NCBI GenBank assembly: GCA_963662405.2
Contig: CAXXKT010000001.1
Coordinates: 2,624,001-2,688,000, forward strand
Source: Syntrophales bacterium
Lineage (GTDB): Bacteria > Desulfobacterota > Syntrophia > Syntrophales > UBA2210
Direction of reading: 5' to 3'
DNA: 64,000 nucleotides
Shown here: positions 20,106-56,060 of the stretch, piece after piece
Layout of the letters: the number at the start of each line of letters is the position of its first letter
How positions within the stretch are numbered: position 1 is the first letter of the stretch
Translations under genes and position numbers: made by a program
Notes under the pieces: generated by a model
What the model was told of the DNA's origin: nothing
Seen by the model: the letters and a program-made list of their open reading frames with translations, nothing else
Database searches by the model: none

Positions 20106-20165
20106 TTATAACAAATCTCTCTAAGAGAACGGCCTGAACGGCCGCCCTTCAGCTTCTCGTTAATG
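20106..20165 (+). other. attC site (degenerate)
   Basis: TTATAAC...CGGCC-TGAAC-GGCCG...GTTAATG. Confidence 0.7.
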
Positions 20166-20800
20166 ATTCCAGAATGATCTTTGCAATTGCTTCAATATTA
20201 ACACTCTTTGCAGAATACCCCGCGGCTTGCCGAGGGGATGAATGCATGCCTTGCCCAGGGGGTTATAAGGGGGAGCGGAGCGTCCCCCTTATCCACAGAG
20301 GCCCTTGTGTGACAACATGATATAAGACTGTCATGACGATTCAGCGAACGAGTCATGCGGTCTACGACACGAGTTACCATCTGGTATGGTGTCCGAAGTA
20401 CCGTAAGAAGGTTTTTGAGCGAGCGGATCTTCGGGAACGAGCGGGACAGCTCATTCGAGAGATCAGCGAGGATTATGGATTTGACGTGATCGAGATGGAA
20501 ATATTTATTTTATCTGTTTCAGGAAGAATCGCGCAGCAAAAGTATTTCTTGGACACTCCTGCGGCGATCCACCCACTCTTCACCTACGAGTGCTCATAAT
20601 AATCCCAGGAGAAAATCGATTATTACTGATTGGAAGTCTCACGGTAAAATCTCTTGACAATACATCATCATAGCGTTAGCTAAGTAGCTGATTTGATCTT
20701 TACGTTTTTTCTGCCTGTGAACAGCTATAACCGGAGGGGATTATGGTCTGATCATCAAAGCCCTGTTTCTTATCAAACGAGAGATAGGGCTTTTGTTTTG
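20159..20800 (+). repeat. Module leader copy D (interrupted by IS200 remnant), upstream of Gabija
   Basis: GTTAATGATTCC start; CAGGAAGAATCGCGCAGCAAAAGTATTTCTTGGACACTCC shared with copy F; TTGACA 20654; hairpin 20757-20800. Confidence 0.85.
20333..20500 (+). pseudogene. tnpA: Truncated IS200/IS605 Y1 transposase with left-end hairpins (~20208-20300)
   Basis: YHLVWCPKYRKK motif; homology ends before HUH motif where leader sequence resumes. Confidence 0.85.
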
Positions 20801-20906
20801 TTGGCGGGAAGGGATGTGAAAAAGAATAGCAAAAGAAATTAAATTGGGAAGTGTTTCTAGTTTTTATGATGGGGTGGGTGTCATTCTAGATATTTAAGGA
20901 AAAATA

Positions 20907-22727
20907 ATGAAAATTCGTCGTCTCAGAATGAAGAACTTTCGGAGTGTTGCGAACGGAGAAATTCTCTTTCCAGGTCATACCGCGGTAATCGGTGGAAATA
21001 GCGTCGGAAAATCGACGATGTGTGAAGCATTGGATTTGTGTCTTGGTCCAGATCGCTTATCCCGTTCCAATCCTATTAACGAACACGATTTTTATCAACG
21101 GCGATACATCAGTGCTGATAGTACGCCAATCCCAATTGAGCTAGAAGTGGTTCTGACAGACTTAACGTCTGATCTTGAAACAAGATTCAGAGCGCACCGT
21201 GAGTATTGGAACACTGAAACCAATTCCTTGCTTGATGAGAATGCAGAGCCTGAGGATACGGAACTTGATAACGTTATTCCTGCCATTAGAATAAAGTTTG
21301 AGGGTCTTTACGACACAGAGGAGGATGAGTTTACAGCGGAAACATTTTTTGCAAGTCCGCCTCCTGAAGATGATGTAAGCCGAGCGAGAGTAAGTCGTTC
21401 TGCAAAACGCCGTTTCGGTTTCATCTATCTGCGTGCTCTGCGCACTGGATCACGTGCGCTCAGTCTCGAACGTGGCTCACTACTCGATATAATTCTCCGT
21501 CTCAAAGATGATGATCGCTCCGCTATGTGGGAACAGACCTTAAATGCTCTTGAAGGTCTTAATCCACCAATCGACAGTATTCCGCAGCTCCGAGACGTGC
21601 TTGATGAGATTGATGGTCGGGTTCGCCGATTTGTTAATATGTCAGAGAATGATCGCGCATTTCAGCTATACCCATCATCTTTGACCCGTGATGATTTGCG
21701 TAAATCCATTACTCTATTCGGGGCGTCCGCCCGATCAAACGCACATGTTCCATACTGGCGTTTAGGGTCAGGTGTGATTAATGCGCTCGTTTTCTCATTG
21801 CTCACATTTATCGCTGAACTAAAAGTAAATGTGATTTTCGCTATGGAAGAACCAGAAATAGCAATACCACCGCATACACAAAGGCGAATTGTCCAATTCC
21901 TGCAAAAAAATATGGATCAATCAATTCTCACGACACATTCGCCCTTTGTTCTCGAACAGTTTAATCCTGAGAACGTTGTATTGCTGGAACGTGATACCAA
22001 CGGTTCACTTGGAGGCCGCCAGATTGAAGTTAGCGGCATCAAGGGTAAAACCTATCGAGGTAATCTACGGCGTATTCTTGCGGAATCAATGCTCGGTAAC
22101 GGTGTCATTTGTGTTGAGGGAGTGTCTGATGCAGAAGTGTTGTATGCGGCTTCAAATGTATTGGAAAGTTACCGTGATGAATTATCGTACACGCCTTTGG
22201 ATTTGTCGGGTGTGACTGTAGTTCAGTGTGAAGGAGATGGAGGTATCCTCCGTTATGGGCAATTTTTCAAAGGCCTCGGGGTGAAAACTTATGCTTTCTA
22301 CGATCTTCAAAAAAATGTAGCAATCAAAAATGATATTGAAGATCTTTTTGATGGTGTATGGGAGCTTGAGCATACTGGCATAGAGTACCTCTTGGCCGAA
22401 GAAACAAATATTGATGCTGTTCGCGCTTTCTTAGAGGACGCTAGTACTTGGGATGATTACCCATCCAACAGAGAAAGACCAGAACTCTACGAGTACGATG
22501 AAGATCTCGATAATGATGATACTCGAGCCATTACCAAACGGGTTCTAAAGCGGAGAAAAGGATCTGGATACGCCGAAAAATTGGTGGAGATGTGTAGCGC
22601 CGAAAATTTGCCGGAGATTATCAGCACCGCACTTAATGCCATTAGCGAAGACCTACCAAATGCCATGGTCAGAGACGATACGGATGGCGGCGACGAAGCC
22701 ACCGAAGACTTGGATACTGATGCATGA
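20907..22727 (+). CDS. gajA: Gabija GajA-like OLD-family ATPase/TOPRIM nuclease
   Basis: GGNSVGKST, LGSG, MEEPE, TTHS, VEGVSD; overlaps UvrD gene. Confidence 0.8.
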   Translation: MKIRRLRMKNFRSVANGEILFPGHTAVIGGNSVGKSTMCEALDLCLGPDRLSRSNPINEHDFYQRRYISADSTPIPIELEVVLTDLTSDLETRFRAHREYWNTETNSLLDENAEPEDTELDNVIPAIRIKFEGLYDTEEDEFTAETFFASPPPEDDVSRARVSRSAKRRFGFIYLRALRTGSRALSLERGSLLDIILRLKDDDRSAMWEQTLNALEGLNPPIDSIPQLRDVLDEIDGRVRRFVNMSENDRAFQLYPSSLTRDDLRKSITLFGASARSNAHVPYWRLGSGVINALVFSLLTFIAELKVNVIFAMEEPEIAIPPHTQRRIVQFLQKNMDQSILTTHSPFVLEQFNPENVVLLERDTNGSLGGRQIEVSGIKGKTYRGNLRRILAESMLGNGVICVEGVSDAEVLYAASNVLESYRDELSYTPLDLSGVTVVQCEGDGGILRYGQFFKGLGVKTYAFYDLQKNVAIKNDIEDLFDGVWELEHTGIEYLLAEETNIDAVRAFLEDASTWDDYPSNRERPELYEYDEDLDNDDTRAITKRVLKRRKGSGYAEKLVEMCSAENLPEIISTALNAISEDLPNAMVRDDTDGGDEATEDLDTDA

Positions 22728-24469
22728 ACGAATGCAATCCAGAAGATAGTTTCGACATTTGCGAAAAGCGACGTGCCATTCTGGAAGGCGATGGGCATAT
22801 GTTGGTTATTGGCGGTCCGGGATCTGGAAAGACAACTATCGCATTACTTAAAGCAAGACGCTACGTATTAGAAAGCTTGATGGCGGAGCAGAGCGTTCTA
22901 TTCCTCAGTTTCTCGAATTCAGCAATCCGTAGGATTCTCGAAAGTGCAGGCGGAATATTGTCATCAGACATTGCCAAGCGCGTTGAAATTAAAACTTATC
23001 ATTCCTTTGCGTGGGATGTTTTGAAATCTCATGGATATCTGACATCAAAAAAGAGGAGGCTAAGTATCGTTTCAGCACAAGATGCTGCCGTAAGAGAGGC
23101 GGGCTTGAATAAAGACTTATGGCTTACCGAGCAGGAACGGTTATACATTGAAGATGGATTAGTGACCTATGACCAGTTTGCCCCTCGTGCCGCTGAAATT
23201 TTGAATCGCTCAAGTGCGGCGAAAGCCTGTTTTAATGCCGCCCATCCCTTAATCCTTGTGGATGAATTCCAAGATACCGATGAAGCCCAATGGGCGCTTA
23301 TTCGTGCTTTGAGTACAGGATCAAGCATTATTGCGCTCGGCGACAAAGAGCAGCGAATATATGAATGGCGCGACGGTGTTTCGGAGCATCGTTTGTCTGA
23401 GTTTGGCGATGAGTTGAACGTCCCAGTATTTGACTTTCAGAATGAAAATAATCGCAGTCCGGCAACTGGTATTGTTGGATATGCCCGATCTCTCTTGTCC
23501 CCCGATGTCGTGCAAGAACTTCCAGCCGATATCGAAAGAAAAGCGTTTCAGCCCGGCATGTTCCCAGTTGGACTTAGGCTTTGCGTTAGCCGAACGTGGG
23601 GTGAAACAAAAAAAAGAGCAGAGAAAAGAGATATCAAAATTGCGATTGCGGCGCGAAGTAAACAGATGGTGAGAAAAATATCTGATGTACTGGCAAAACC
23701 TATCATGATTAAAAATAAAAAGTACAAACCGATTCATCATGACGTATTGTTTGATCAAATGCAGATCGTCTTAGCAGCACGTGTTATCGCAAATGTTATG
23801 GGAAGTACTCATCTCTCATGGGACCAACGTATATCGCAATGTCTTCGTAGAATGGCCGACATGTTACGCGCGGCCAACAACGCCACAAACATCCAAAACT
23901 CTGACGTGTTACAAAACTGGGCGCAAAAATGTGACGACGGTAAGCCTCCTAAGACTAAATGTGTTGCGGCTCTTGTCGAAATTATTGAAGCTATTGAGAA
24001 TGATGGATTTTCAGGCTCTCCGACCAGAGATTGGCTAATGGTCCGACAGGCATTTGAGAGGGCGAGCGTTGACCACTTGACGAAGACAGCTGAGTTTGCT
24101 CGTTACTTACGACTACTTCGGCGCGGTTCATTAATAGAAGAGGAGCTAACAAGTTTGTGGCGGACGAGTGGTAATTATCTAGGCGCTGAGGAGGCTTTAG
24201 ATCGAGCCATTCTACAAGATCAGCTACTCGATTCTCGTAAAGAGTCAGCGAGTATTTCAGTGATGACCATGCACCAATTGAAAGGCCGAGAGTATGACGG
24301 AGTGTTGCTTGTTGAAGACCAATATAATAACTTTAGGGGACGGGATGTGAAACGGCCTTACATGGAAACCCGTCGCCTGTTACAGGTTTCTTTGACGCGA
24401 GCGAAACATTTCGCATTGGTTCTGTCAGCAACGAAAAATGCGACTTTGGATGTGATCTTTGATAATTAA
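22724..24469 (+). CDS. gajB: Gabija GajB-like UvrD helicase
   Basis: GGPGSGKT, VDEFQD, GDKEQRIY, TMHQLKGREYD, SLTRA. Confidence 0.8.
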   Translation: MNECNPEDSFDICEKRRAILEGDGHMLVIGGPGSGKTTIALLKARRYVLESLMAEQSVLFLSFSNSAIRRILESAGGILSSDIAKRVEIKTYHSFAWDVLKSHGYLTSKKRRLSIVSAQDAAVREAGLNKDLWLTEQERLYIEDGLVTYDQFAPRAAEILNRSSAAKACFNAAHPLILVDEFQDTDEAQWALIRALSTGSSIIALGDKEQRIYEWRDGVSEHRLSEFGDELNVPVFDFQNENNRSPATGIVGYARSLLSPDVVQELPADIERKAFQPGMFPVGLRLCVSRTWGETKKRAEKRDIKIAIAARSKQMVRKISDVLAKPIMIKNKKYKPIHHDVLFDQMQIVLAARVIANVMGSTHLSWDQRISQCLRRMADMLRAANNATNIQNSDVLQNWAQKCDDGKPPKTKCVAALVEIIEAIENDGFSGSPTRDWLMVRQAFERASVDHLTKTAEFARYLRLLRRGSLIEEELTSLWRTSGNYLGAEEALDRAILQDQLLDSRKESASISVMTMHQLKGREYDGVLLVEDQYNNFRGRDVKRPYMETRRLLQVSLTRAKHFALVLSATKNATLDVIFDN

Positions 24470-24470
24470 A

Positions 24471-24561
24471 GTATAACGTCCAAGGTCACTTGCGCCGCCT
24501 AAGACCCTTCCGCGTCAGCGCCGCAGATGTTAACGGCGTCAAGTGAACCGTCTGGTTCGGC
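24471..24561 (-). other. attC site (minus strand)
   Basis: GCCGAAC..GGTT[C]ACTTG[A]CGCCG..CGGCGCAAGTGACC..GTTATAC; extrahelical bases set orientation. Confidence 0.85.
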
Positions 24562-24566
24562 AATTC

Positions 24567-25010
24567 CTATAAATGCTTTATTTCAATGGCACCAAATTGA
24601 TCTTTTAAATATTCACTTACCAAACGACGATGGCATTTTTCAGGAGTAGGTTCACTACACAAAAAACAAGCATTATTAAGTTCTTCAAGAGATATTTTTT
24701 TCTCGATTTTGCGTTCTTTAATCAGTTTGCTAAAACGCTGTACATACTCATCCCAATCAATTTGCTTTTTCTTGTATGCATCAAGAATTTCCTTTGTTGG
24801 TGCAAAATCGGGCATGTGTTTATAGTCACAGTCGCAAAGCTCTCTTAAAAAGAAGATGAGGTCATCTCGTTTTGCAAAACCAGCAAGTTGAGAAACATTG
24901 TTCAACCGAATATCGATGAGTTTAGTAACGCCGGCGTTACGTATTTTGGAGAAGAATGTTTTCGCGCTTTTTTTTGTGAATCCAATAGTATACAGGTTTG
25001 TTTTTGACAT
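24567..25010 (-). CDS. DUF488-family protein
   Basis: YTIGF, IDIRL, LCSE..PEKCHR. Confidence 0.8.
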   Translation of the reverse strand: MSKTNLYTIGFTKKSAKTFFSKIRNAGVTKLIDIRLNNVSQLAGFAKRDDLIFFLRELCDCDYKHMPDFAPTKEILDAYKKKQIDWDEYVQRFSKLIKERKIEKKISLEELNNACFLCSEPTPEKCHRRLVSEYLKDQFGAIEIKHL

Positions 25011-25618
25011 TATTTATCCTTGTACTCGGATGTCGGTTCAGCTGTTTCGTATGCAATTTTTTCACCTTGCCGCATGTATGCATCATTCAACCTTTGTTGC
25101 TCGCTACGAAACATTTCCGGTTGATTTAAACCAAAAATTTTAAGCAACCTCTGCTCACTATCTTTGTGGTCTTCGGTTATCCAATTACTCATAATATGTT
25201 TGATATTAATTCCCCTATCAGACAGATTCCGACAAATCAAAATAGTTCTATGGCATGTAATGGGGTCTTTTTCTGCGCACATAAGGGCTATGCGATACTT
25301 TTCCATGCCTTTAGTTATTCTTTTTAATCCTTCCTTGAATTTGGGACTTTCCGCCACAAGGGTGAAATCTACTTTCCCATTAACATAACAAGATGGATCT
25401 TCAACTCGTGCCCCGCACAAGTCTCCTAAAAACACGTAAGCGATACCATGTTTATTGAGAAATCTTGAAAGGTTTTCTTTGTTGAATTCCGGCTTAAACT
25501 GGCTATATGGCGATGACCGAACATCTGCGACCGCAGTTATTTTGTGTTTATTCAAAACACGCAGGAATGAATCAAGTATGTGGGGGGAGTAGCCTATTGT
25601 GAATAATACATTGCCCAT
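25010..25618 (-). CDS. DUF488-family protein
   Basis: FTIGYS, DVRSSP, LMCAEKDPITCHR. Confidence 0.82.
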   Translation of the reverse strand: MGNVLFTIGYSPHILDSFLRVLNKHKITAVADVRSSPYSQFKPEFNKENLSRFLNKHGIAYVFLGDLCGARVEDPSCYVNGKVDFTLVAESPKFKEGLKRITKGMEKYRIALMCAEKDPITCHRTILICRNLSDRGINIKHIMSNWITEDHKDSEQRLLKIFGLNQPEMFRSEQQRLNDAYMRQGEKIAYETAEPTSEYKDK

Positions 25619-25630
25619 AATTTACCACTA

Positions 25631-26329
25631 TTACGAATAACATCTTATTTCTTCAAGATATTCAGGGAATAAATAGATTCCATTTACTTGTAACCAATAT
25701 CCGTTTCTACCGTCTGGGGATGAATACCCACGACTTAGACCGACCCTTATAAAAACTTCAGATTGCGAATGAATGAAGTGGTTAAGGTTAGAAAAATTAC
25801 CGCCCCTGTTGTTTTCAGCGTAATTGTAAAATCCTAAATCAGTTATACCGAGATACCGGAACTCCTGACCTGAACTATCTGTAACTATAATTTTGATTTT
25901 CCCTGGATTAAAAGAGTCTGGCACGATGCTGACATCTCGTGGGTCAACTGAAATTGTTATGATTGATTTCTGGGGTGGGTTGTCGATAGGTATATATTTC
26001 TGCCCGGAAGGAATAGCAACAGAAAAACCTTCTTGGACATTTGGGCTTTCAGTCGCCATTAATACCGACTTAAATTCCTCAGTGCTACATGGACCATTAA
26101 AAGTTAGACTTCCCCTATAACTTCTGTCTTCAGTATGTGGAGCAGAACACGACATAGGCACAAAATTACCCTCCAATTTGGCACCTGGAAGGATATTCAA
26201 GCTGCGACATTCGGTTGTAGCTAGGTACGGCAAAGGCCTAATGCATTCATTTGTATCTGGATTTATCCCTGCAATACAAACAATATCCTGCCTCGAAAAT
26301 CTGGTAAGATCTGTAATGATTATTCCCAT
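25631..26329 (-). CDS. Dual OB-fold-like protein
   Basis: VCIAGI..IRP, PHTED, ITD, RVGLSR motifs; typical partner of DUF488 genes. Confidence 0.6.
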   Translation of the reverse strand: MGIIITDLTRFSRQDIVCIAGINPDTNECIRPLPYLATTECRSLNILPGAKLEGNFVPMSCSAPHTEDRSYRGSLTFNGPCSTEEFKSVLMATESPNVQEGFSVAIPSGQKYIPIDNPPQKSIITISVDPRDVSIVPDSFNPGKIKIIVTDSSGQEFRYLGITDLGFYNYAENNRGGNFSNLNHFIHSQSEVFIRVGLSRGYSSPDGRNGYWLQVNGIYLFPEYLEEIRCYS

Positions 26330-26341
26330 AATTTATTTCCT

Positions 26342-26360
26342 GCCGAACAATTAGTATACC
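26342..26360 (-). other. attI-like entry site of minus-strand cassette
   Basis: GGTATAC-TAATT-GTTCGGC; GTTCGGC complements the cassette's GCCGAAC; no attC hairpin upstream. Confidence 0.5.
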
Positions 26361-26947
26361 AACCAACTTGATTTTCCCCGATTTACTCAAGAATTGTTGC
26401 TCTTTTTCAAAAAGAATGCAAAGAAAAAAGTGCTTAAATATCAAGCAAAATGAACTTTTGACACTTGGTGCTTTATAGTAATATGCCGCTTGATCCACGT
26501 TGGTATATCAAAGGAGATTTGTCCAGTGTAAAGGATATCGACATTAATGTATATTGTTTGAAATAGTATATGCTCTGAAGAATTATCAAATGCTTTCTTC
26601 CAGGAGGGAGCAGATAATCTACATGAACCTAGAATGTGCAGCCCGAGTTGTGCATCTTTCAACCCGCATTCAATAAGGTTGACCGACGAATTGTGGTAAT
26701 GACTTGTATTTGAAGTCTCGCATCGTTTCGACAAAGTCAAGATTCACGACTACAGGCAGCTATACAACTTGCTTGAAGCTCGATGGTTATACAGAAGAAT
26801 TCCCTTCAAAATAGCTACGGCAAACCCTGAAGCAGTGGAAGAAGCCCTTTCTGCATGAACGAAAGATATTGGCCAACATACTGCCGATAGGGACTCGCAA
26901 AAACCGCGCGTCCCACAGCAGTACGTTGAAAATAACAAACCTGGAAG

Positions 26948-27249
26948 ATGGGTATACAAAATAACCTAAAGTCAGTTCTCATCCGCGAGGGGCTCACGCA
27001 GGCAGAACTTTCCCGGGCGTGTCAACCGGAACCATCAATCGCGTTCTGAACCGGCAAAGTTCAGTAGCCTTGATAACTATGTCCAAGATTGTCATGGCTT
27101 TCAACATGCCATCTGACAATAAGTACAGCATCAGGGACGTCTTCCCCGCGTGCAGGAGCGAGATTTCCCGCGCCACTCAATCGCCCGATCGCGTAATGCC
27201 CGGAGTCCTCACTTCCCCCCGTCCACTGTCCGGGCCTATAGCCCTTTGA
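26948..27249 (+). pseudogene. Frameshifted XRE-family HTH regulator
   Basis: MGIQNNLKSVLIREGLTQAELSRA continues as VSTGTINRVLN in another frame near 27018. Confidence 0.6.
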
Positions 27250-27258
27250 GAAGGTTTC

Positions 27259-27687
27259 TTATGTAAGGCGGCGAGGGGGTGGCGACGGCGGAGGTTCTTT
27301 CGGAAACGGCGACCAGTTGCCCCTGAGGGCGATCCTGTGGGCATCCTCTATCGTCGGGGCACAGCCTCTGCAGAGATAGCGCAATACTCCCCCGTTACGT
27401 CCATGGTATGGACCCGTAACAAACGACCACCCCCATGTTCGCCGAAACTCCTGTTTGCACACAACGCACTGACGCCAGAACAACAGGGGGAACCTCACGG
27501 AGATGCCGTGCTCATATCGTTCCTTGGGTTCACGCTTCACCTTTTTCCCCTCCTTTTGTCCTCTTTTCCGTTGCCAGCTCGGGACGCGTGTTCTTTCTGT
27601 TGCCTCAGATAGTGTGTCGGCATCCTGAGTGAGGGCCGCCGCGATCACTTCAGGGTAGGCTTGAACGTGCAAAAAGGAAGCGTTCAT
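27259..27687 (-). CDS. Phage hypothetical protein with CxxC..CxxC
   Basis: ATG overlaps stop of upstream gene. Confidence 0.5.
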   Translation of the reverse strand: MNASFLHVQAYPEVIAAALTQDADTLSEATERTRVPSWQRKRGQKEGKKVKREPKERYEHGISVRFPLLFWRQCVVCKQEFRRTWGWSFVTGPYHGRNGGVLRYLCRGCAPTIEDAHRIALRGNWSPFPKEPPPSPPPRRLT

Positions 27688-28007
27688 TTCTTTCCGCTCG
27701 TATTTGCCGTTTCCTTGGCCGGCTTCTTTCCCTGATCCTTCTTCCTGTTGCTGACTTTGCGCTCCGGCCGTGTCATGAGCCGGTCGGTTATCATCTCGGC
27801 CGCCCCTTTGGGGACAATGCCTTTCAGGACGTATGAGATATACCACTGATCCACAGCGTCGGAGTCTGACAGGAGCGTCCCGCCGGGCTTTCCCGTTGAT
27901 GATACGGCCGGGAACCCGTACTCTTTGATCCACTGTCGGATCTTGTCTTCCCCCACCTCGCCCTTGAAATGATCCAGGATTGCCTTCATGCCTATCAATT
28001 TTGCCAT
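27684..28007 (-). CDS. Small winged-helix DNA-binding protein
   Basis: L.GMKAI...I..WI...GFP motif, GGAGG RBS. Confidence 0.6.
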   Translation of the reverse strand: MAKLIGMKAILDHFKGEVGEDKIRQWIKEYGFPAVSSTGKPGGTLLSDSDAVDQWYISYVLKGIVPKGAAEMITDRLMTRPERKVSNRKKDQGKKPAKETANTSGKK

Positions 28008-28009
28008 GC

Positions 28010-31119: not shown

Positions 31120-31140
31120 CTCCTTTCTTCCTTTTTCGCT

Positions 31141-44815: not shown

Positions 44816-44831
44816 ATGGAAGAGAAGAATT

Positions 44832-45269: not shown

Positions 45270-45271
45270 AT

Positions 45272-45330
45272 GCCCAACAACAGGCTTGACGGCACGCGAT
45301 AAACCGCGCCCGTCAACCTGAGCGTTAAAG
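45272..45330 (+). other. attC site
   Basis: GCCCAAC..CAGGCTTGACGGCACGCG..CGCGCCCGTCAACCTG..GTTAAAG. Confidence 0.88.
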
Positions 45331-45349
45331 CTATAAGGAACAAGATGAT

Positions 45350-46102: not shown

Positions 46103-46164
46103 CCAGTCGTTCCACCGGATCGGCGGGGAAAAGCAATCGCCTCCCGGTGAGCTCTTTATTAGCA
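46097..46164 (+). other. attC site with mutated R' (ATT)
   Basis: CCCTAAC..CACCGG..CCGGTGA..ATTAGCA; next cassette ends TGCTAAC. Confidence 0.75.
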
Positions 46165-46183
46165 AATTTAATGGAGTAGCAAA

Positions 46184-46864: not shown

Positions 46865-46868
46865 TTTT

Positions 46869-46964
46869 TGCTAACCTAGCACTTCAAAAGAAAGCGAGGG
46901 CGGGGCGACCGTGCAAAATTGAATATCTGTATCGCCCTGACTTCTGGTGAGTTTACTGTTCGCA
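46869..46964 (+). other. attC site (degenerate)
   Basis: TGCTAAC..GGGCG..CGCCC..GTTCGCA. Confidence 0.65.
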
Positions 46965-46980
46965 GGAAAAGGTAACAAAA

Positions 46981-47700
46981 ATGTCTAGATTTTTAACAAC
47001 ATTTAGAGAACTTGAAAAAATTATACATTCTGAATACGCTTCTTTAGATTTAAAATGCTGGGAAGAGTATGAAATAGATAAAAAACATCCGCTTACATTT
47101 TTTACTGAAGAGATAAGAGATATTAGTCCAATTAATCCTTTTAATTGGTATGAATTTATCACAGAAATTGAATTCCTAAGTAAAGATTTAAAGTATTATA
47201 CGACTATTCTCTTTCTTTTAAGACCTTTTATAAATAACCCTTTACGAGAAGATAAAACATACTATCAAACGATTGAAGATAACAGATACATGAGTTATGT
47301 TAGTATGCTTTATCAGATTATTTATAATTATTGGGATAGACTGGGTGATTTTTTATTTTACTTCATTGAAACAGGGCTGAAGGAAAGAAATGTGTATTTC
47401 TCCACCGTAATAACAAGTATTTCCGAGGATTTTAAAGAATCAGTTAATTACCAAAAATTGTTGAAAATATATGTTGAGTATCTGAAAGAGCTTTTTGACA
47501 ATAGAAAAAACATTGTACATTACTTACAAATATCTGCAAAAATGTTTTCTGGAACATTTCTTCATCATAACGATGAAAAGAAACTTCTTGAAATGGAAAA
47601 AGAGAAAAACGGATATCCTGATTTTTTTCAAAAACACTTGGAACTAAGTTTGGAAGGATTTGAGTATTCTGTTAAACTTGTCAGTGAGTCGAAGACGTAG
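46981..47700 (+). CDS. Gene cassette: Cthe_2314-like HEPN protein
   Basis: YNYWDRLG, RKNIVH. Confidence 0.7.
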   Translation: MSRFLTTFRELEKIIHSEYASLDLKCWEEYEIDKKHPLTFFTEEIRDISPINPFNWYEFITEIEFLSKDLKYYTTILFLLRPFINNPLREDKTYYQTIEDNRYMSYVSMLYQIIYNYWDRLGDFLFYFIETGLKERNVYFSTVITSISEDFKESVNYQKLLKIYVEYLKELFDNRKNIVHYLQISAKMFSGTFLHHNDEKKLLEMEKEKNGYPDFFQKHLELSLEGFEYSVKLVSESKT

Positions 47701-47712
47701 ATTTTGATTGCC

Positions 47713-47767
47713 TGCTAACCACAAAATTCGGGGGACGGATTCCCGCCCCTGATTTTAGGCGTTGCTG
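47713..47767 (+). other. attC site
   Basis: TGCTAAC..AAAATTCGGGGGACGG..CCGCCCCTGATTTT..GTTGCTG. Confidence 0.8.
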
Positions 47768-47806
47768 ATTACCAATTGATCTTGCCCCGAAAAAGTGGAC
47801 ACCCCA

Positions 47807-48655
47807 CTAAGTTACACACGCTTTTCGTTCAAACTCAGCGGGAGAGCAATAATTCAATGATGAATGTCTTCTAACGCAATTATAGAAAACTTCGATATAT
47901 TCGAATATGCTCCCGCGAGCTTCCTGTCTTGTCTGATACTTCTCAAAATAAACAAGCTCCGTCTTTAAGGTATGGAAAAACGATTCCATAAGAGCATTGT
48001 CGTAACAATTCCCCGAAGAGTTCATGCTCTGAATAAAACCATATTTCTCCATCAGCCCCTGAAAAGCATAGCTGGTATATTGAGTTCCACGATCTGAATG
48101 AAACATAACACCAGCTTTGGGTCGCCGCTGCCTGATCGCCTTGTGCAAGGCATCTGCAAGAATCTTATGACTCAATCTGTTATCCATCGACCATCCAATA
48201 ATCTTACGATTGAAAACATCCAGGATCGCTGCCAGATAAAGCCAACCCTCTCTCGTCCAAATAAGGGTAATATCAGAAACCCACACCTTGTTGGCCACAT
48301 CTGTCGAAAATCTCCGATTTAAAAGATTATCCGCCACTAAAAACTCATGCTTGGATTTTTTGGTGGCCTTGAACCTGCGTTTCGTCTTTGCCTTAATCCC
48401 ATGACTCTTCATCAGGTGAGCCACTCGTTTCCTGCTACACTTAATCCCGTGGGCCTGAAGTTCCGCTGTCACCCTCGGGCTACCATATGTGCCGCGACCC
48501 TTTATGAAAGCGTCCCGAATATACATCAGCAACCGCTCATTCTCTCTCTGGCGGTCACTCTTGCTGTGTTTCCCCCATATGTAATAACCGCTCCTGGATA
48601 CCCCCAGCACTCGGCACATCTTCTTCACCGAAAATTCGGAACGGTGATTTTCCAT
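47807..48655 (-). CDS. IS3 transposase OrfB (DDE)
   Basis: WVSDIT, HSDRGTQY, DNALMESFF. Confidence 0.92.
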   Translation of the reverse strand: MENHRSEFSVKKMCRVLGVSRSGYYIWGKHSKSDRQRENERLLMYIRDAFIKGRGTYGSPRVTAELQAHGIKCSRKRVAHLMKSHGIKAKTKRRFKATKKSKHEFLVADNLLNRRFSTDVANKVWVSDITLIWTREGWLYLAAILDVFNRKIIGWSMDNRLSHKILADALHKAIRQRRPKAGVMFHSDRGTQYTSYAFQGLMEKYGFIQSMNSSGNCYDNALMESFFHTLKTELVYFEKYQTRQEARGSIFEYIEVFYNCVRRHSSLNYCSPAEFERKACVT

Positions 48656-48666
48656 GAACTCATACT

Positions 48667-48972
48667 TTACTTTGGGTGTTTCGAGAAGATGGCCAACGCT
48701 TTTTTTAAGATTTCCCTCTCCTCCCTTAAGCTCTCATTCTCCCGCCGCAACCGACGAAGTTCCTCCTCAGGTGCCTTCAAATGACCTTTCCCGGGAAAAG
48801 CTTGCTCCATGTCCGCCCGATATTTACGCCTCCACTGATGAAGCAGGTTTTTATGAACATTCAAATCCTTAGCTAGATCACTTACAGAACGTTTACCTTC
48901 ATCCATTAACCGAATCGCCTCATACTTAAACTCCCGATCAAAATACCGCTTATCCTTCCCATTAACCATGAC
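48667..48972 (-). CDS. IS3 transposase OrfA
   Basis: EFKYEA HTH, EREILKKA. Confidence 0.88.
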   Translation of the reverse strand, partial: VMVNGKDKRYFDREFKYEAIRLMDEGKRSVSDLAKDLNVHKNLLHQWRRKYRADMEQAFPGKGHLKAPEEELRRLRRENESLREEREILKKALAIFSKHPK

Positions 48973-49591
48973 ATGCCTCCTCGTTACTCTATGTCTATAA
49001 GAGAAACTCTTCGGTATGTCCACTAAATCGGGGGAAGACCAAATAGTAATCTGCTACGAACAGGCCCATTCAAGTTTTGTTTGTTACAGGAAGAATCGCG
49101 CAGCAAAAGTATTTCTTGGACACTCCTACGGCGATCCTTCCACTCTTCACCTACAAACACTCAGAACAATGCCATAAGAAATTCATTGATTACTGATTGA
49201 AGGTTTCGCAGTGAAATCTCTTGACAATACGTCATCATAGAGTTACCTAAATCGTGGTTTTGATCTTGACATTTTTTATGCTTGTGCTGGCTGTACCAAT
49301 TAGGATTATGATCTGATCATTGAAAGCCCTGTTTCTCAAAAAGAGAGATGGGGCTTTTTTGTTTTTTTGGGCAACTTAGAAAATATCGGGGTTACGTGAA
49401 CGCGGAAAAGAGTATTACATAGTTTCTGTATAACACACCTCAATAAACGAAGGTTTTCATAATAATCTTTGTATTACAGTAAGTTGTAATGATTTTTTCC
49501 GCAATTGAAATATGTATTACGTAGCTGTTTCAGCTATGTTTGGTTTTTATACAGAAACAATATAAACACTGTTGCTGCATAAGGAGTGACC

Positions 49592-50479
49592 ATGAAAATC
49601 CCCGTAAGCATAGAACCCGATGAAGAAGGTTATATTGGAAGAGAATGTCCAGTTTGTAAGAAATATTTTAAAGTTAAATTCGGTACTGGGTTGCATGGAG
49701 TGACTGATTGCTATTGCCCATATTGTAATCATAAAGATTCGCAAGATAATTTTTGGACAAGACAACAGATTGAATATGCAAAATCGATAGCCCTTAATCA
49801 AGTCACCAGTGATCTCCTGAAGAGCCTAAAAAAGTTAGAGCGTAGACCAAAACCAAATCAACTTATTTCTATCGGTATAACTGTCAAAGGACAACCAACA
49901 CCGATTATTTACTATTCCGAAGAAGAACTAGAGCAGAAGGTCACGTGTAATCAGTGTACTTTAGAATATGCTATTTATGGAGCATTTGGTTATTGCCCTG
50001 ATTGTGGCATTCATAATTCAAAGCAAATTGTATCTGCAAACTTTGATCTCATATTAAGAATTTTGGCATTATCAGTTAATGCGGAAGGTGACATCAAATC
50101 AAAGTTAATCGAAAACTCTCTAGAAGATGCAGTATCAGCCTTCGACGGTTTTGGCCGTGAACATTACTCAAGTGCATACCCCCAAATATCATTTCAAAGT
50201 ATATCGTTTGCTCAGACAAAAATTCTAACTGATTCCCAGGTTGATATATCTTCTGGCTTGTCTCCAAAGGAATGGGATTTTGTAGTGGAGCAATTTCAGA
50301 AAAGGCACTTGATAGCACACAAAATGGGTATAATCGATGACGAGTTTATAAGAAAAACTGGAACATCATCTTCTTTGGTTGGTAGGAAGGTTTCAATTAC
50401 AGAAGAAGATGTCCGAAAATTTATTTCTTATTTGTTGGTCATAACAGATAATTTACTTACAGGTATTCCACGCAGCTAA
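49592..50479 (+). CDS. Gene cassette: multi-CxxC Zn protein with C-terminal HEPN-like motif
   Basis: Four CxxC pairs, RHLIAH. Confidence 0.7.
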   Translation: MKIPVSIEPDEEGYIGRECPVCKKYFKVKFGTGLHGVTDCYCPYCNHKDSQDNFWTRQQIEYAKSIALNQVTSDLLKSLKKLERRPKPNQLISIGITVKGQPTPIIYYSEEELEQKVTCNQCTLEYAIYGAFGYCPDCGIHNSKQIVSANFDLILRILALSVNAEGDIKSKLIENSLEDAVSAFDGFGREHYSSAYPQISFQSISFAQTKILTDSQVDISSGLSPKEWDFVVEQFQKRHLIAHKMGIIDDEFIRKTGTSSSLVGRKVSITEEDVRKFISYLLVITDNLLTGIPRS

Positions 50480-50532
50480 CAACAGCATCCAGACCGACGC
50501 GCTACGTGCGCGGCTGATGCTGAGCGTTCGGT
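50474..50532 (+). other. attC site
   Basis: AGCTAAC..CAGCATCCAG..CTGATGCTG..GTTCGGT. Confidence 0.88.
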
Positions 50533-50545
50533 TTAGATAAAAACT

Positions 50546-51103
50546 ATGCCTCTAAATCATACATCTCAGTTTTCTGAATTAACAGACAAGCAATTTAACC
50601 TAATTGGCAAAATTGTGGTTGAATGGGCCAATGTCGAATTTATGCAAAAACTAATATTAAGCAGGCTTCTATTTTCGGCGGAATTCATTAGTCGGACATA
50701 TACAGATCGAATGAGTGCCGTGAGGATTCAGGACGCAATAAAGGAATCCGTTGATCTTCATCGTCACAGATACTGCGGAGAGATCATAAGTGAAGACATA
50801 TTGTCTGAAATTGAAAAAGTGAATAATGAAGTTCATGATGCAAGAGCACATAGAAATAGATTCGCACACTTTTGCTGGACTCGTAACACAGATGAAGAAA
50901 TTTTTGGTACAAATTTTTCTGCAGGTTTACCAGGTAGCAAAAAATATAGAAAATCCGACATTGTTATAACGAACAAAGAGTTGGAACAGCTCTATAAGGA
51001 ATCATATAATTTGGTGGATAAAATCAATCAACTCATTGAGAAGCTTCCAGAGATTGAGGAAGATGATTTAACAAAAAGACCAAAAACCGAACAACGGCAT
51101 TAA
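50546..51103 (+). CDS. Gene cassette: HEPN-like protein
   Basis: IG..VV.WA.VE, RNRFAH. Confidence 0.7.
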   Translation: MPLNHTSQFSELTDKQFNLIGKIVVEWANVEFMQKLILSRLLFSAEFISRTYTDRMSAVRIQDAIKESVDLHRHRYCGEIISEDILSEIEKVNNEVHDARAHRNRFAHFCWTRNTDEEIFGTNFSAGLPGSKKYRKSDIVITNKELEQLYKESYNLVDKINQLIEKLPEIEEDDLTKRPKTEQRH

Positions 51104-51148
51104 GGGAGGCGGCACAAAAGCCGCCGCGCCTTATGCCGGGCGTTCGAC
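51086..51148 (+). other. attC site
   Basis: ACCGAAC..CGGCATTAAGG..CCTTATGCCG..GTTCGAC. Confidence 0.88.
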
Positions 51149-51163
51149 ACTATAGGAGAAACG

Positions 51164-52723
51164 ATGAAAACTCTAAAATTACGAGATCTTCAGATAGGTA
51201 ATATTGATGCAAAAAATGAGCTTCTCACTGGTTCAGAACAAGAAATTGATTTTTTCCGCAAGGGCTTCTGTCTTCCACCTAATATAGTGCTCCAGGATTT
51301 TTTAGGTTCAAAAAAATATTATGTGACAGGCTTAAAGGGAATCGGAAAAACAGCACTCTTAAGATATATAGCACTTGAAGCTGAAAGACAGTTTGGTGCC
51401 ACATGTTCATTTATCTTGTTTAAGAGCGATGTAAAAGAGCAAGATCGTAAAGACATCTGTCGCGTCGCTAGGGCCGAATTAATTGAAAAAAATCTCGAAG
51501 ATTATGATGGAAATGATTTTGAAGTTGTTTGGAAATGGTTTTTGCATAGAAAGATAGTTGATACTATTCGAGAATGTAATTTAAAGTTATTTCAAGATGA
51601 CGACAATTTTAGAAAATATGAGAAGTGTGTAACCGCTCCAAAACTTGATGAAAAATCATCCGGGATTAAACGACTAATACCCAACCTAAAAAAGGGTTCT
51701 ATAGAAATTAGTGAAAATCCGAAGATTGGTTTGGATTTTGATTGGGAGGATAAAGGTAAAACTCGTGTTAAGTTTCATAGTCTAACCAAACAAGCTGATC
51801 AACTTTTTCAGGAATTAAGGCCAGCAGATGGACACCTTCGTCTGTTTTTAGATGAATTGGAATTAAGCTTAGGCTCCCAAAAACAGTATAAAAGAGATGC
51901 AACCCTGATCAGAGATTTGATTATAGCTGTTGAGCAAATCAATTCAGTTGCAAAAAAAATGAGATATAACTTAACCATCTATGCTGGAATTCGTTCTGAA
52001 GTTCTTTCCGCAATTGAATCAGTCGGTAAAGAAATAAACAAAATTATTGGTGATTTCGGAAGCCAAATTGTATGGCATCAGTCCGGTTCTGATAATGAAA
52101 ACCACCCGTTGCTCAACATCATTGTTCAGAGAATATCTATCTCGGAAAACACTAATAAATCAGAGCGTGGCAACCTAAAATCTATAATTTGGAATAAATA
52201 TTTTCCAATATCAATTCAGGGAATTAAGTCCGAGAAATATATCCTTCACAATTCATGGTATCGACCTAGGGATATGGTTCGACTTCTTAATCTGGCAAGG
52301 GATCAATTCCCTGATGTAAGTGGGTTCACTCAAAGAGTTTTCGATGGAACACGAAAGCAATACAGTCAAGAAAGCTGGATAGAATTAGCAGAGGAATTAA
52401 GTGTCAAATATTCTCAACAAGAATTAGTCGCCATTCAACAGATATTCAATGGATATAAAAGAGAATTTTCTTTTATAGACCTTCAGGGTCATATCGAAAA
52501 AAGGCGGAAATTATATCCTGCTGTTGATAAGGCTCTGGTATCACATGCAATTGGCGAAATATTAACTGATTTATACAATATTGGATTTGTAGGTAATGTA
52601 ATTTACTCGGGTAGGAGAGGAATTAGTCCTAAAATGCGCTTTAGCTTTAGAGGTGATCCCAATTTGATTATAGAAGAAAAGATCACTGTACATAAAGGTT
52701 TGTATTCCTTTTTTACATTATGA
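51164..52723 (+). CDS. Gene cassette: P-loop ATPase (Sll1717/FunZ-like)
   Basis: G..DA..E, GLKGIGKT, FLDELE, RPRD. Confidence 0.75.
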   Translation: MKTLKLRDLQIGNIDAKNELLTGSEQEIDFFRKGFCLPPNIVLQDFLGSKKYYVTGLKGIGKTALLRYIALEAERQFGATCSFILFKSDVKEQDRKDICRVARAELIEKNLEDYDGNDFEVVWKWFLHRKIVDTIRECNLKLFQDDDNFRKYEKCVTAPKLDEKSSGIKRLIPNLKKGSIEISENPKIGLDFDWEDKGKTRVKFHSLTKQADQLFQELRPADGHLRLFLDELELSLGSQKQYKRDATLIRDLIIAVEQINSVAKKMRYNLTIYAGIRSEVLSAIESVGKEINKIIGDFGSQIVWHQSGSDNENHPLLNIIVQRISISENTNKSERGNLKSIIWNKYFPISIQGIKSEKYILHNSWYRPRDMVRLLNLARDQFPDVSGFTQRVFDGTRKQYSQESWIELAEELSVKYSQQELVAIQQIFNGYKREFSFIDLQGHIEKRRKLYPAVDKALVSHAIGEILTDLYNIGFVGNVIYSGRRGISPKMRFSFRGDPNLIIEEKITVHKGLYSFFTL

Positions 52724-52734
52724 GTGTAAAAAAT

Positions 52735-52807
52735 GTCGAACATCAGCTTGGAGAAGGATACTCATTACGCTGCGCTTCATTCGCACCTCTCAAGCTGGGC
52801 GTGAGAT
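52735..52807 (+). other. attC site with mutated R' (GTG)
   Basis: GTCGAAC..CAGCTTGGAGAAGG..CCTCTCAAGCTG..GTGAGAT. Confidence 0.85.
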
Positions 52808-52820
52808 TTCGGAGGAAGAT

Positions 52821-53150
52821 ATGGCACTACCTAGCTATAAGGATATCGTCGAACTCCTTAAGAAGGGAGCAACGATTGAGGCTCAAGAAAAGATTATGGA
52901 GCTCCGCGAAGCAGCTCTTGCGCTTCAAGAGGAGAACATTAATTTAAAAAACAAGGTCTTGGAGCTCCAGGGAAAAGTTCGTAAATTAGAATCATTTGAA
53001 GGTGAGCCATGTCCTAAATGTCGAAAACCAGCTTGGGTTGTGGAGTCAAGCAAGCCGGACAGTACGCTTGGTGACCTAGGTGTTATCCGTCGAGTTTATC
53101 GCTGCACTGAATGCGGGTTCTCCGAATCACAATTGGTGACGCCAAAATGA
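52821..53150 (+). CDS. Gene cassette: coiled-coil + Zn-ribbon small protein
   Basis: Heptads then CPKC..CTEC; GGAGG RBS. Confidence 0.75.
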   Translation: MALPSYKDIVELLKKGATIEAQEKIMELREAALALQEENINLKNKVLELQGKVRKLESFEGEPCPKCRKPAWVVESSKPDSTLGDLGVIRRVYRCTECGFSESQLVTPK

Positions 53151-53151
53151 A

Positions 53152-53214
53152 ATCTAACCCCACGGTCAATCGGGACGCGCCAAAAGCGGCGCGCCCCTTA
53201 CCTTCACGTTAGGC
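53152..53214 (+). other. attC site
   Basis: ATCTAAC..GGGACGCGCC..GGCGCGCCCC..GTTAGGC. Confidence 0.88.
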
Positions 53215-53439
53215 TAAATTTTAAGTCTCATGCAATTATTACTTAATGTTAGCGTATTTTGACCCGATTATGCGAATCCAGTTTGTCGGTTACAATTGAA
53301 ATGGCAATGATCACACGGTTATTGTTGCCGCCGTGGCATGCCTTGCTGTTTGGCAATTTTTGGATAAGCAGGAAAAGGCAACCGTCACAGATGGTGGGCA
53401 ATAATCGATAAAATAGCGTATAGCCAAGCTTGGCGGAAT

Positions 53440-55935
53440 ATGAGTAACGATTTAATAAGAAACAACCATTACGTCCCTATTTGGTATCAAAAGAATTTCT
53501 TATCTTCAAAGAAAGCGGCTTTCCATTACCTCAACCTTTATCCGGATAAAATTGAATTACCTAACGGCAAAGTAAATTTTAAAAATCAGATATGTTGGCC
53601 ATTCTCTCCTAAACAGTGTTTCTATCAAACTGATTTATACACGACTTCTTTTCTGGGTTATCGAAACGACGAAATCGAACGTTACCTTTTTGGTAAAATA
53701 GATAGCGATGGATCAATAGCCATTAAAGCATTAATGGACCTGAATTATCGTTTATTCCATGACTACTTTCTCAAAGTTTTTGAATACATGGATATTCAAA
53801 AGCTTAGAACACCCAAAGGACTAACATGGTTAAGTCAAAAGTTTTCAATGATTACCCATAATCAGCTTTTGTTTGAGATGCAGAAGATACGAAGGCTGCA
53901 TTGTACATTATGGGCAGAAGCTGTGAAAGAAATTGTTTTGGCCAATAATTCCAAGATAAAGTTTATCGTGTCCGACCATCCAGTGACAGTCTATAATGCG
54001 GCTTGTCCGCCCAACTCAACTGAATGCAAATATCCAAACGACCCTAGAATTGAAATGCAGGGAACACAAACGATTTTCCCTCTGGATTCCAATCGATGTC
54101 TAATTTTAACAAATTTGGATTATGCTAAAAACCCCAGTTTGCAGAACCTTAAAAAATATAGACCAAATCCAAATCCTTTTCGAAACACAATGATCAGATA
54201 TGATAACATCATTAATGAGAGAGAATTATCAGAAGATGATGTTGCGCATATCAACTGGATAATTAAGTCTCGCGCATCACAATATTTAGCTGCCGAAGAA
54301 AAGGAGTGGCTATTCCCAGAAAACAGGGTTTGTCCCGATTGGGCCAAATGCGGTCAAGTGCTAATACCTCCCAGTAATAAGCTTTATAAATTTGGAGGTG
54401 AGATATACGTTGGATACGAAGATGGTTCATCTGCATACTTTGACCAATATGGACGAAGAGAACCAGAATCGGAATTTTTAAGGAAAAAGCAAAAAGCTGG
54501 AAAAATAGGAGCAAATGACCCTTGCCCATGCGGAAGCGGAAAAAAATATAAGAAATGTTGCAGAGATAAACCTGTTGATGAACGGCCCGCCAGTGACGTT
54601 CTAAGTATTCGTGAGCGCAACCTATTTTTTCTCGACATCGTTACAGGAATTTTGGGGGTGAATAGGAGCGGAGACTTAGACTGGGATGAGCTACGTAGAA
54701 ATTTAACCAATGAAAAAATTGCAGAGATATATAAGGCGGTCGCAGCATTATGGCCGCCATCTACTGATTTATTTGCACTTCTCCCAAGACCAGACTCTAA
54801 TGTCCTGAGAGCTTTGTTTACAGGTATAATTGACCCACGTGTGACGTATATAAGCATGGCCTGTTTTTCCTTTTATGCAGACGAGATTTTAGTTCAAAGT
54901 CCTTTTGCAAACCCACACAACATGAGGGAAGAATTTAATCCTATAAAAAACCCTGGGAAATATAGGGATGAAACAATAAAAAACCTGTTTTTCTTATTTT
55001 TAATAATTCCGTGGATTGAAATTGGCGTGATTAATTTATTCCCAGACCCGTGGAATTTTAATTTCGCATTGATGGAGACCGTTATGGAGGCAGCTGAAAA
55101 AAGGAAAGATTCGATAACCTTCGATGAAAAATCATTCAAACAAATGGAAAAATTGTTCTTTGAAGACTATAAACGAACTTTATTCACAATGCCGGATAAA
55201 AACCTTCGGGCTTTTATTCGCCATACATCTCAAGACCTCTCAGAAGAAGAAATATCTAAGCTTATCGAATATACTAAACGAATGAATGCTCAAGATCCGC
55301 TTGTGGATCTGAATCCTGATAAGCCAGGAAAAGAATCAAGCCAGATGCTAATATCACGCACAACTCCAAACATGGAAATGACAATGCTTCTGGCACAAGC
55401 AACTGGTTCAATGATAATAACAGACAATTCTTTCAGGTGGTTTGAAATATGCTCATCAATTCCTTACTACTATGGCCTCAGCAAAAACCCCTGGGCTAAA
55501 TTTGAAACCTTCGCATCTGATTATCCTGTTCAGTTTCCATTGATCGTTGAACAACTATCCCACATGCAGGAGCTAAAGAAATCAGAATTCATGTCTGTAA
55601 AGAGGGTGCTAAAACGATTGTGGAATTCCATTAATGCGGATCAGGCACCAGATAATGCTCAGATTGATCATTTGCAAGAGGAGTTTGATATCGCTCAAGA
55701 GGTAATGTCTAAATCAATCGAAAAATTGGTCCAAAAAGGTGAAAAGGCTACCGACACATCTCCTTACCCAAGGCCAATGAACATAGACGCAAAATTGAGT
55801 TGCAAAATATCACCGATTGGGCATATCAATAATTTGGTATATCGATTATTGATAAGCTATGCGGGACATGATAAGTACCTTAAATCGCTTCCATTGTCTC
55901 TGTATGTAGAATATGGAAACAAGGAGAGAGCCTAA
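53440..55935 (+). CDS. Gene cassette: DUF4238 + SEC-C motif protein
   Basis: HYVP.WY..F, SDHPV, GANDPCPCGSGKKYKKCC. Confidence 0.8.
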   Translation: MSNDLIRNNHYVPIWYQKNFLSSKKAAFHYLNLYPDKIELPNGKVNFKNQICWPFSPKQCFYQTDLYTTSFLGYRNDEIERYLFGKIDSDGSIAIKALMDLNYRLFHDYFLKVFEYMDIQKLRTPKGLTWLSQKFSMITHNQLLFEMQKIRRLHCTLWAEAVKEIVLANNSKIKFIVSDHPVTVYNAACPPNSTECKYPNDPRIEMQGTQTIFPLDSNRCLILTNLDYAKNPSLQNLKKYRPNPNPFRNTMIRYDNIINERELSEDDVAHINWIIKSRASQYLAAEEKEWLFPENRVCPDWAKCGQVLIPPSNKLYKFGGEIYVGYEDGSSAYFDQYGRREPESEFLRKKQKAGKIGANDPCPCGSGKKYKKCCRDKPVDERPASDVLSIRERNLFFLDIVTGILGVNRSGDLDWDELRRNLTNEKIAEIYKAVAALWPPSTDLFALLPRPDSNVLRALFTGIIDPRVTYISMACFSFYADEILVQSPFANPHNMREEFNPIKNPGKYRDETIKNLFFLFLIIPWIEIGVINLFPDPWNFNFALMETVMEAAEKRKDSITFDEKSFKQMEKLFFEDYKRTLFTMPDKNLRAFIRHTSQDLSEEEISKLIEYTKRMNAQDPLVDLNPDKPGKESSQMLISRTTPNMEMTMLLAQATGSMIITDNSFRWFEICSSIPYYYGLSKNPWAKFETFASDYPVQFPLIVEQLSHMQELKKSEFMSVKRVLKRLWNSINADQAPDNAQIDHLQEEFDIAQEVMSKSIEKLVQKGEKATDTSPYPRPMNIDAKLSCKISPIGHINNLVYRLLISYAGHDKYLKSLPLSLYVEYGNKERA

Positions 55936-56002
55936 CATCAGCTTGGAGAAGGATACTCATTTCGCTGCGCTCCACTCGCACCTCTCAAGCTGCGCGTTAC
56001 TG
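55930..56002 (+). other. attC site
   Basis: GCCTAAC..GTTACTG; near-identical to 52735-52807. Confidence 0.9.
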
Positions 56003-56060
56003 ATTACGAAAAGAAATATACTATCATTCGGTCCCAATTGGTTCCCTTGAGTACAGGAAG
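55996..56060 (+). repeat. Module leader copy G (5' fragment only)
   Basis: GTTACTGATTAC with TACAGGAAG 56 bp later, as in copies A and F. Confidence 0.6.

Follow-up and report, generated by a model that had tools for sequence, protein, structure and literature searches.

Predicted intI-less integron platforms and the recurrent module at their right end in two tandem islands of a Syntrophales genome

In reverse (co-oriented) integrons the integrase gene intI, the attI site and the gene cassettes run in one direction. This text concerns three cassette arrays and the repeated non-coding leader modules around them in a 64,000-nt stretch of a Syntrophales genome (G000:C1:2624001-2688000, hereafter the window; G000 is this genome and C1 to C3 are its contigs), which holds two tandem islands at tRNA-Arg, each with its own phage-type integrase. 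Clusters of attC sites without an integron integrase (CALIN) have been described, with a possible functional link to a distant integrase (Cury et al. 2016, PMC4889954), and a CALIN that bears an attI, within a prophage, is already known (PMC9892861). For attG sites, hot spots and excision outside the insertion point are described (10.1101/2022.09.11.507474). Only the first crossover base has to match, the second and third being tolerated (PMC2811028). On balance it is probable that the window arrays are integron platforms devoid of intI, and that their last attC was fused by a distant IntI to a secondary target, the edge of a module named M1.

Cassette arrays and attI-like sites without intI

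The leaders are chains of modules: M1 (65 bp, from a GTT to the heptamer CAGGAAG), a linker (LKa or LKb), M2 (from the heptamer CACCTAC), M3 and, sometimes, an attI region. M3 carries a TTGACA, a motif composed of a Shine-Dalgarno sequence, ATG, one codon and TGA (35 of 53 copies), and a terminator. The genome has 56 matches to M3 and about 26 to M1.

Eleven cassettes of one direction, each an open reading frame (ORF) followed by attC, form integron arrays in the units called C, E and F. The attC sites were identified by an R'' of the form RYYYAAC, an L''/L' stem and an R' GTT, using our own scanner and visual inspection; true sites escaped the strict attC scanners, and a relaxed scanner gives false positives below score 11. 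The cassette start is the exact complement of the cassette's own R'' in the first cassettes of C and E and in the second, third and fifth of F, and an imperfect one in the second cassettes of C and E and the first and fourth of F. With two or more attC sites and no intI within 10 kb, the arrays are CALIN. They are not complete integrons with intI beside the array, the window having no match above the TIGR02249 cut-off. The island integrases were ruled out as the cassette enzyme, their scores being far under the integron-integrase cut-off. The single intact intI of the genome (C1:2211990-2212934; 471 bits, cut-off 265) is ~410 kb from the window and a second, frameshifted copy lies at C1:30608. 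The nearest named IntI relatives belong to Smithella and Syntrophaceae (74-86%).

The intact intI is followed co-directionally by a site ending ATAAACATTG/TT (the slash marks the crossover) and then by cassettes. The attI-like consensus found behind it recurs at the ends of leaders C, E and F (18806, 44809, 49571), where the sequence of the intI-cassette site is associated with a G/TT crossover at the first cassette. The 165 bp preceding the first cassette of F match the sequence that immediately follows intI here and in relatives, with 94% identity to the frameshifted-intI copy. Both intI genes of G000 and those of the family genomes G005 and G019 are preceded by a block like M3, with promoter, short ORF motif and terminator; the profile matches only in G019, the block being recognized by eye in the other genes. 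No M3-like block was found before intI in the Smithella/Syntrophaceae loci. The shared attI consensus, the 165-bp block and the intI-type leader lead to the reading of C, E and F, made at the level of sequence, as co-oriented integron platforms whose intI is missing, and the attI-like sites at 18806, 44809 and 49571 are real in this sense, as putative attI.

M1 at the right end of the arrays

The first-pass annotation had proposed that the plus-strand arrays end in an attC whose R' GTT is also the first triplet of a leader. The joints exist at 20159, 47761 and 55996 (R'' at 20106, 47713 and 55930), but no leader lies behind 55996; the attC at 20159 folds poorly as a single hairpin. A scoring matrix built solely from 12 M1 copies of other genomes, none of them preceded by an attC, gives 10.5 for the M1 of unit D, 6.0 for F, 30.8 for G and 14.4 for A, against a mean of -22.5 (standard deviation 8.7) for the 1981 GTT triplets of the window. 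A score of at least 9 is reached by 4 of these 1981 triplets and by 18 of 98,023 genome-wide, and seven other window attC junctions score -4 to -28. Because these values stand far above the GTT background, the resemblance to M1 at attC junctions is not due to chance. The data support the GTT as the true cassette crossover and the sharp left edge of M1. Among the related starts proposed to occur without attC, 6798 is confirmed, 10081 matches only with a one-base shift and 18359 fails (score -2.5, no heptamer 56 bp further on). The reported spacing between GTT and TACAGG is correct: 56 bp in A, 54 in B, 56 in G and 56 in F once the interrupting IS3 insertion sequence (IS) of 1265 bp (47777-49041) and its 3-bp duplication are subtracted, the F value being reconstructed from the flanks.

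Seventeen intI-less attI-like sites of G000 (one degenerate) were followed, and 13 of the arrays end as attC-G/TT-M1. Three of these 13 M1 copies continue into M3 and only that of F into M3 plus attI; M3 is found within 330 bp of M1 in 2 of 66 uninterrupted copies with enough flank. No M1 was matched within ~22 kb of the two intI-linked arrays. Of 37 other genomes of the family, 26 contain M1 and 18 match the attI model; the layout from attI through attC to M1 occurs at 6 loci across 4 of these genomes. One locus is common to G000 and G007; it retains the right flank and a decayed M1 and carries unrelated cargo. M1 would appear as a leader start in the window only because platforms stand there in tandem. 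The M1 pattern has no occurrence in viral contigs, nor has the M1-heptamer-linker pattern in the genome collection.

The proposal that leaders are joined at attI sites holds in that attI-like sites exist; they sit at leader 3' ends, and none is found to the left of M1 (0 of 12 non-attC copies in G000). Empty leader-leader junctions, in which attI would directly meet M1, had been suggested as a check and are not seen in this genome. The 38 family genomes gave 34 pattern matches, 14 of them inspected as text and none with M1 there, and the genome collection 119, none profile-supported; in metagenomes a strict pattern gave 0 matches and a loose one 36, none real. One M1 copy in G017 is preceded by a few attI-like bases, too weak to count. 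Contigs of three runs of one sample (both regions, depth ~2-10) contain no joint at any G/TT, which is silent on excision because contigs drop rare variants; other joints among them are mostly explained by paralogous copies.

Seventy M1 copies were classified, the set leaving out the IS-split D and F and weak or truncated matches (E above ~1e-4). Thirteen of them have a natural left flank that is not attI but a variant of a repeat resembling repetitive extragenic palindromic (REP) sequences; 12 copies with this flank form the only large left-flank cluster. Naturally joined copies are found in at least 8 genomes and in each of the two main M1 subfamilies, with a dyad across the joint. The REP-like repeat is itself abundant in G000 (C3:119800-154200, C1:444600, C1:2473550), where inverted pairs spaced by 60-90 bp are frequent. 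A G stands at the joint in 26 of 30 attC-joined copies, in 1 of 13 naturally joined ones and in 13 of 27 others. Twenty-two of the 30 attC-joined copies read GTT (register 0) and further attC-M1 joints occur in registers +1, +3 and +6. The requirement for the first base only fits the GCT, GTA and A/TT joints (PMC2811028). In a roughly supported tree of 72 M1 copies (63 columns) the attC-joined label has to change 21 times, and well-supported branches force at least 7 of these changes. A single origin is found in 0 of 200 bootstrap trees, and the label is no more clustered than in shuffles (75 of 500 as low). The natural non-attI flank in relatives and the scatter of the attC-joined state on the tree suggest that the M1 5' edge is likely a re-used secondary (attG-like) target and a fixed right anchor. 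With respect to attG hot spots, repeated use is deduced from the tree and the natural joint base is G in just 1 of 13 copies.

The following course of events is envisaged. The gene intI would have been deleted from a co-oriented integron lodged in the cargo slot of an island. IntI acting in trans would keep adding cassettes at attI and excising them at attC, and recombination of attC with the secondary site would have removed sequence lying between M1 and the last attC, on several independent occasions. M1 would then stay as the right anchor, every later excision leaving the same G/TT-M1 joint. Exchange at platform scale would likely take place within the repeated leader and at two related sites centred on the heptamers rather than at the GTT. 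Several points weigh against this account. The activity of IntI on these predicted sites is read from sequence and recombination was not observed. The regular stop of the deletions at M1 is left unexplained, and 4 of the 17 intI-less arrays end without M1. The natural M1 flank ends mostly in A or T (12 of 13), so that only a minority variant fits the GWT rule. Many attC labels of the tree were given by eye because the scanner missed those sites, and gene conversion among M1 copies could also scatter the label. The proposed ancestor, an intI-bearing platform with M2 before and M1 after it, was not seen, both candidate contigs ending first. A consensus promoter scan found none for M3, whose promoter assignment rests on the conservation of TTGACA.

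Features of the window

The features are, by position:

2343..44074, no strand assigned: Island 1 at tRNA-Arg, with phage-type integrase (42862-43983), terminase gpA and D5 primase; holds units A-D
6798..6862, plus: M1 copy A, no attC or attI on its left side; closes with heptamer CAGGAAG (6856-6862)
6863..7138, plus: LKa, M2 and M3 (promoter, start-stop, terminator) of unit A; attI does not follow
10081..10143, plus: M1 copy B, one base short, then an IS3 insertion (10182-11455) and a decayed M3
18168..18596, plus: left part of unit C, with heptamer (18168-18174), LKa, CACCTAC (18377-18383), M2 and M3; the GTT at 18359 is not M1
18637..18808, plus: attI region of C, resembling the DNA between intI and attI in a co-oriented integron; the crossover G is 18806
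18806..20159, plus: array C, two cassettes (ORFs 18828-19496 and 19546-20097; attC R'' at 19491 and 20106)
20159..20526, plus: M1 copy D, fused at G/TT to the last attC; IS200-like remnant (~20196-20505), heptamer 20520-20526
20527..20799, plus: LKa, CACCTAC (20581-20587), M2 and M3 of unit D; no attI after
20907..24469, plus: Gabija gajA-gajB, plain cargo behind M3 (GajA 1e-224, GajB 4e-185)
24471..26347, minus: three-gene cassette (dual-OB, two DUF488; PADLOC PDC-M45), attC 24561-24471; its start GTTCGGC complements its R''
26601..26931, plus: heptamer, LKb and cassette tail with attC, crossover G at 26925; the attI of a paralogous island is deleted here
44075..63282, no strand assigned: Island 2 at tRNA-Arg, with integrase (61813-63003), Prim-Pol and AAA+; holds units E-G
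44573..44723, plus: M3 of unit E; M1, linker and M2 absent in front
44766..44811, plus: attI of E, with its crossover G at 44809; GTTGGGC and the R'' of the first cassette are exactly complementary
44809..47761, plus: array E, four cassettes (R'' at 45272, 46097, 46869 and 47713), the third PD-T7-4-like
47761..49093, plus: M1 copy F, fused at G/TT to the last attC; IS3 at 47777-49041, heptamer 49087-49093
49094..49362, plus: LKa, CACCTAC (49148-49154), M2 and M3 of unit F; terminator stem 49322-49358
49406..49573, plus: attI region of F, sharing 94% identity with the sequence that directly follows the frameshifted intI at C1:30608; the crossover G is 49571
49571..55996, plus: array F, five cassettes (R'' at 50474, 51086, 52735, 53152 and 55930)
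55996..56060, plus: M1 copy G, fused at G/TT to the last attC; heptamer 56054-56060, no promoter block or attI beyond

In unit C the first cassette starts with GTTAGCC, the exact complement of its R'', and unrelated metagenome contigs diverge exactly at the attI.

The first-pass annotation also envisaged leader-plus-cargo modules, Gabija included, as IntI substrates. This finds no support: gajAB lie behind the M3 of D without attI, and no same-direction attC with a matching G/TT start makes them a cassette. The attC beside them fits the minus strand (7/7 versus 5.5/7) and closes the three-gene PDC-M45 cassette, which runs from 26347 to 24477. The next plus-strand attC (26871-26925) would formally permit a 6.8-kb excision from 20159, and no sign of its occurrence was seen. 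A term search in 10.1101/2024.07.02.601686 gave 0 occurrences of "Gabija". Note that the PDC-M45-like cassette (24471-26347) opposes the array direction and lies just past the end of gajB, and no clear attI precedes it.

The M3 copies at 18430-18596, 20635-20799, 44573-44723 and 49203-49362 comprise a putative promoter, an RNA of ~120 nt and a terminator. The TGA of the start-stop motif lies 3-12 nt before the terminator stem in the same 35 of 53 copies, and M3 precedes intI and many unrelated genes; it may act as a translation-coupled attenuator. Rfam gave no match to M3 at gathering score; the best hit, NsiR1, reached 28 bits against 39 and covered only the terminator. The motif at the 5' end of M1 is related to that at the 3' end of M2; at C1:242146 an attC is fused through them directly to M3. 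The IS3 in the M1 of F (47768-49050) is also found at C2:335843-337125, in a similar motif at the M2 end. Contigs of two runs join an IS630 end (10038) to the M2 of unit D (20587) on opposite strands. This joint may be a population variant, since the assembly has one copy of that M2, without IS there.

The heptamers are met by other mobile elements. A two-tyrosine-recombinase element with short inverted ends is found at C1:131300-133410 and C1:159850-161890; a 7-bp CAGGAAG repeat flanks one copy and the other sits at CACCTAC. An IS110-family element lies repeatedly inside CACCTAC (C1:158500-159600, C1:306350, C1:1415727, C2:343223), as if aimed at the repeat. The likely chromosomal dif site is at C2:85548. 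A Xer/dif module was rejected, this likely dif being different and the spacer 7 here versus a 6-bp criterion. M1 as the end of an element beside its own integrase was likewise rejected after scanning 42 downstream ORFs, whose genes are unrelated.

At the island borders, 2372-2535 and 63235-63398 reveal that the island duplicates part of tRNA-Arg and the whole tRNA-His, the tRNA-His copies differing in the T-arm. A related Prim-Pol island occupies the same tRNA-Arg locus in G020, of another genus (C2:412000-449000), with its M3-attI array elsewhere and in the other direction.

Alternative readings and known systems

Of 47 paralogous leader-body alignments none starts at the GTT, 21 start at CACCTAC, 22 inside M2, 1 at CAGGAAG and 3 elsewhere, a count biased by the IS elements that cut D and F. 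A mapping of module boundaries to the GTT is not supported for the leader body. Alignments to the intact M1 of unit A do begin at its GTT (6796-6798), so that the GTT is the edge of M1 and not of a coherent leader. This bears on the idea that the unit from the GTT of M1 to the G of attI, either by itself or together with cargo as far as a later attC, is moved by IntI as a promoter-and-attI cassette, in a second tier of shuffling. The module order is constant where modules are linked (M1-LK-M2-M3-attI-cassettes-M1), unit F lies exactly between an attC and a cassette, and composite cassettes entering attI would leave the old M1 at the end of the chain, as observed. G/TT is also kept in 13 of the 27 M1 copies with neither attC nor natural flank, and attI x attC and attI x attI reactions exist (PMC4792948). 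Unit F (47761-49571) would formally be an attC x attI substrate, as predicted from its ends (for attI reactions: PMC4792948, PMC10127599). Yet a leader with a G/TT start, its own attC or attI at the end and the same ends in paralogs is found only for F; A, B and D have no att site at the leader end. Only 1 of the 13 array-ending M1 copies runs into a whole M3 and attI, and the attI-M1 joint, which direct insertion would produce, is missing from this genome, the 38 family genomes and two collection scans. The closest paralog of F shares 49146-49573 only, from CACCTAC, a 98.8% duplicate of the left end of the island breaks at 6972, within the leader and not at 6798, and Gabija has neither attI nor an adjoining same-strand attC. 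Furthermore, attI x attI recombination is 3-4 orders rarer (PMC4792948). Such mobile leaders are quite improbable.

M1 could also stem from the attI of one ancestral island integron, as its right half plus flank; all platforms would then derive from that integron, and the REP-like flank would be a later addition to some copies. The dominance of register 0 (22 of 30), the 13 of 17 arrays ending in M1 and the abundant, mobile-looking REP-like repeats agree with this. Natural joints with a dyad across them in both M1 subfamilies and at least 8 genomes do not, nor do the several registers and the intI-linked arrays that do not end in M1, and the empty site was not found; this origin is unlikely. 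A different recombinase may act at the scale of platforms. The segment M2-M3-cargo-M1 would then be a non-autonomous element moved at the heptamer sites, with IntI only filling it, which is compatible with M1 as a re-used target of IntI. Each of the 22 linker copies directly follows a CAGGAAG-type heptamer, and most M2 copies begin at CACCTAC. In 23 of 26 cases the arms of one site type, scored against the other, exceed the 90th percentile of the local background. Downstream of the heptamer the 70 M1 copies fall in 56 flank clusters, often with unrelated housekeeping genes, and the two-tyrosine-recombinase element duplicates CAGGAAG once and sits once at CACCTAC, where IS110 inserts too. Against this, searches around three platforms gave no matched empty allele, the platforms contain no recombinase, their sites are unlike the likely dif, and the breaks could be scars of repeat-targeting elements combined with homologous exchange. 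Movement of this kind is possible, if rather doubtful. An extension into two tiers appears unlikely as well: platforms would be copied among islands via heptamers by a recombinase pair acting in trans, the distant IntI would load defence cassettes, and the abutting promoter and attI block (47761-49571) would be excisable and re-insertable at any attC. Secondary targeting of the M1 edge by IntI on intI-less platforms is the preferred reading.

If this reading is true, many arrays classed as dead CALIN would be live docking sites served in trans, and one integrase would feed ~17 separately promoted arrays, many of them on phage-satellite-like islands and rich in defence genes. It would also provide a natural, repeated case of a secondary IntI site becoming a fixed right array boundary, which bears on the origin of attI sites and CALIN, and the sequences named here would be exact candidates for testing the docking and anchor roles. 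No description of many dispersed intI-less platforms with one conserved downstream anchor was found in literature searches covering only an open-access library.

The intI, attI and cassettes of this genome are co-directional as in reverse integrons. The window copies differ by the clean absence of intI between its leader and attI. With CALIN they share at least two attC sites, no nearby intI and an intI elsewhere in the genome (PMC4889954); relative to that description, attI and the intI leader are kept here, in ~17 copies in this one genome, most with one common downstream anchor. The attI-bearing CALIN of Shewanella prophage M16-3 (PMC9892861) is likewise an intI-less array with its own attI on a prophage-like element. 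There, one copy lies beside a complete integron, whereas here many are dispersed, some in tandem, and have a conserved right anchor. Several attI per cell could swap whole arrays as in the en-bloc transfer by attI x attI recombination described by Escudero et al. 2016 (PMC4792948), although no exchange product was identified here. With the attG sites of Loot et al. (10.1101/2022.09.11.507474) would be shared a G/TT crossover outside attI and attC, hot spots and deleting excision, and off-target IntI rearrangements (PMC10127599) group with them by their crossover outside attI and attC. In the arrays described here, unlike attG as reported there, the target would be a repeated, family-wide non-coding element that was hit repeatedly in evolution and whose natural joint base is often A or T.

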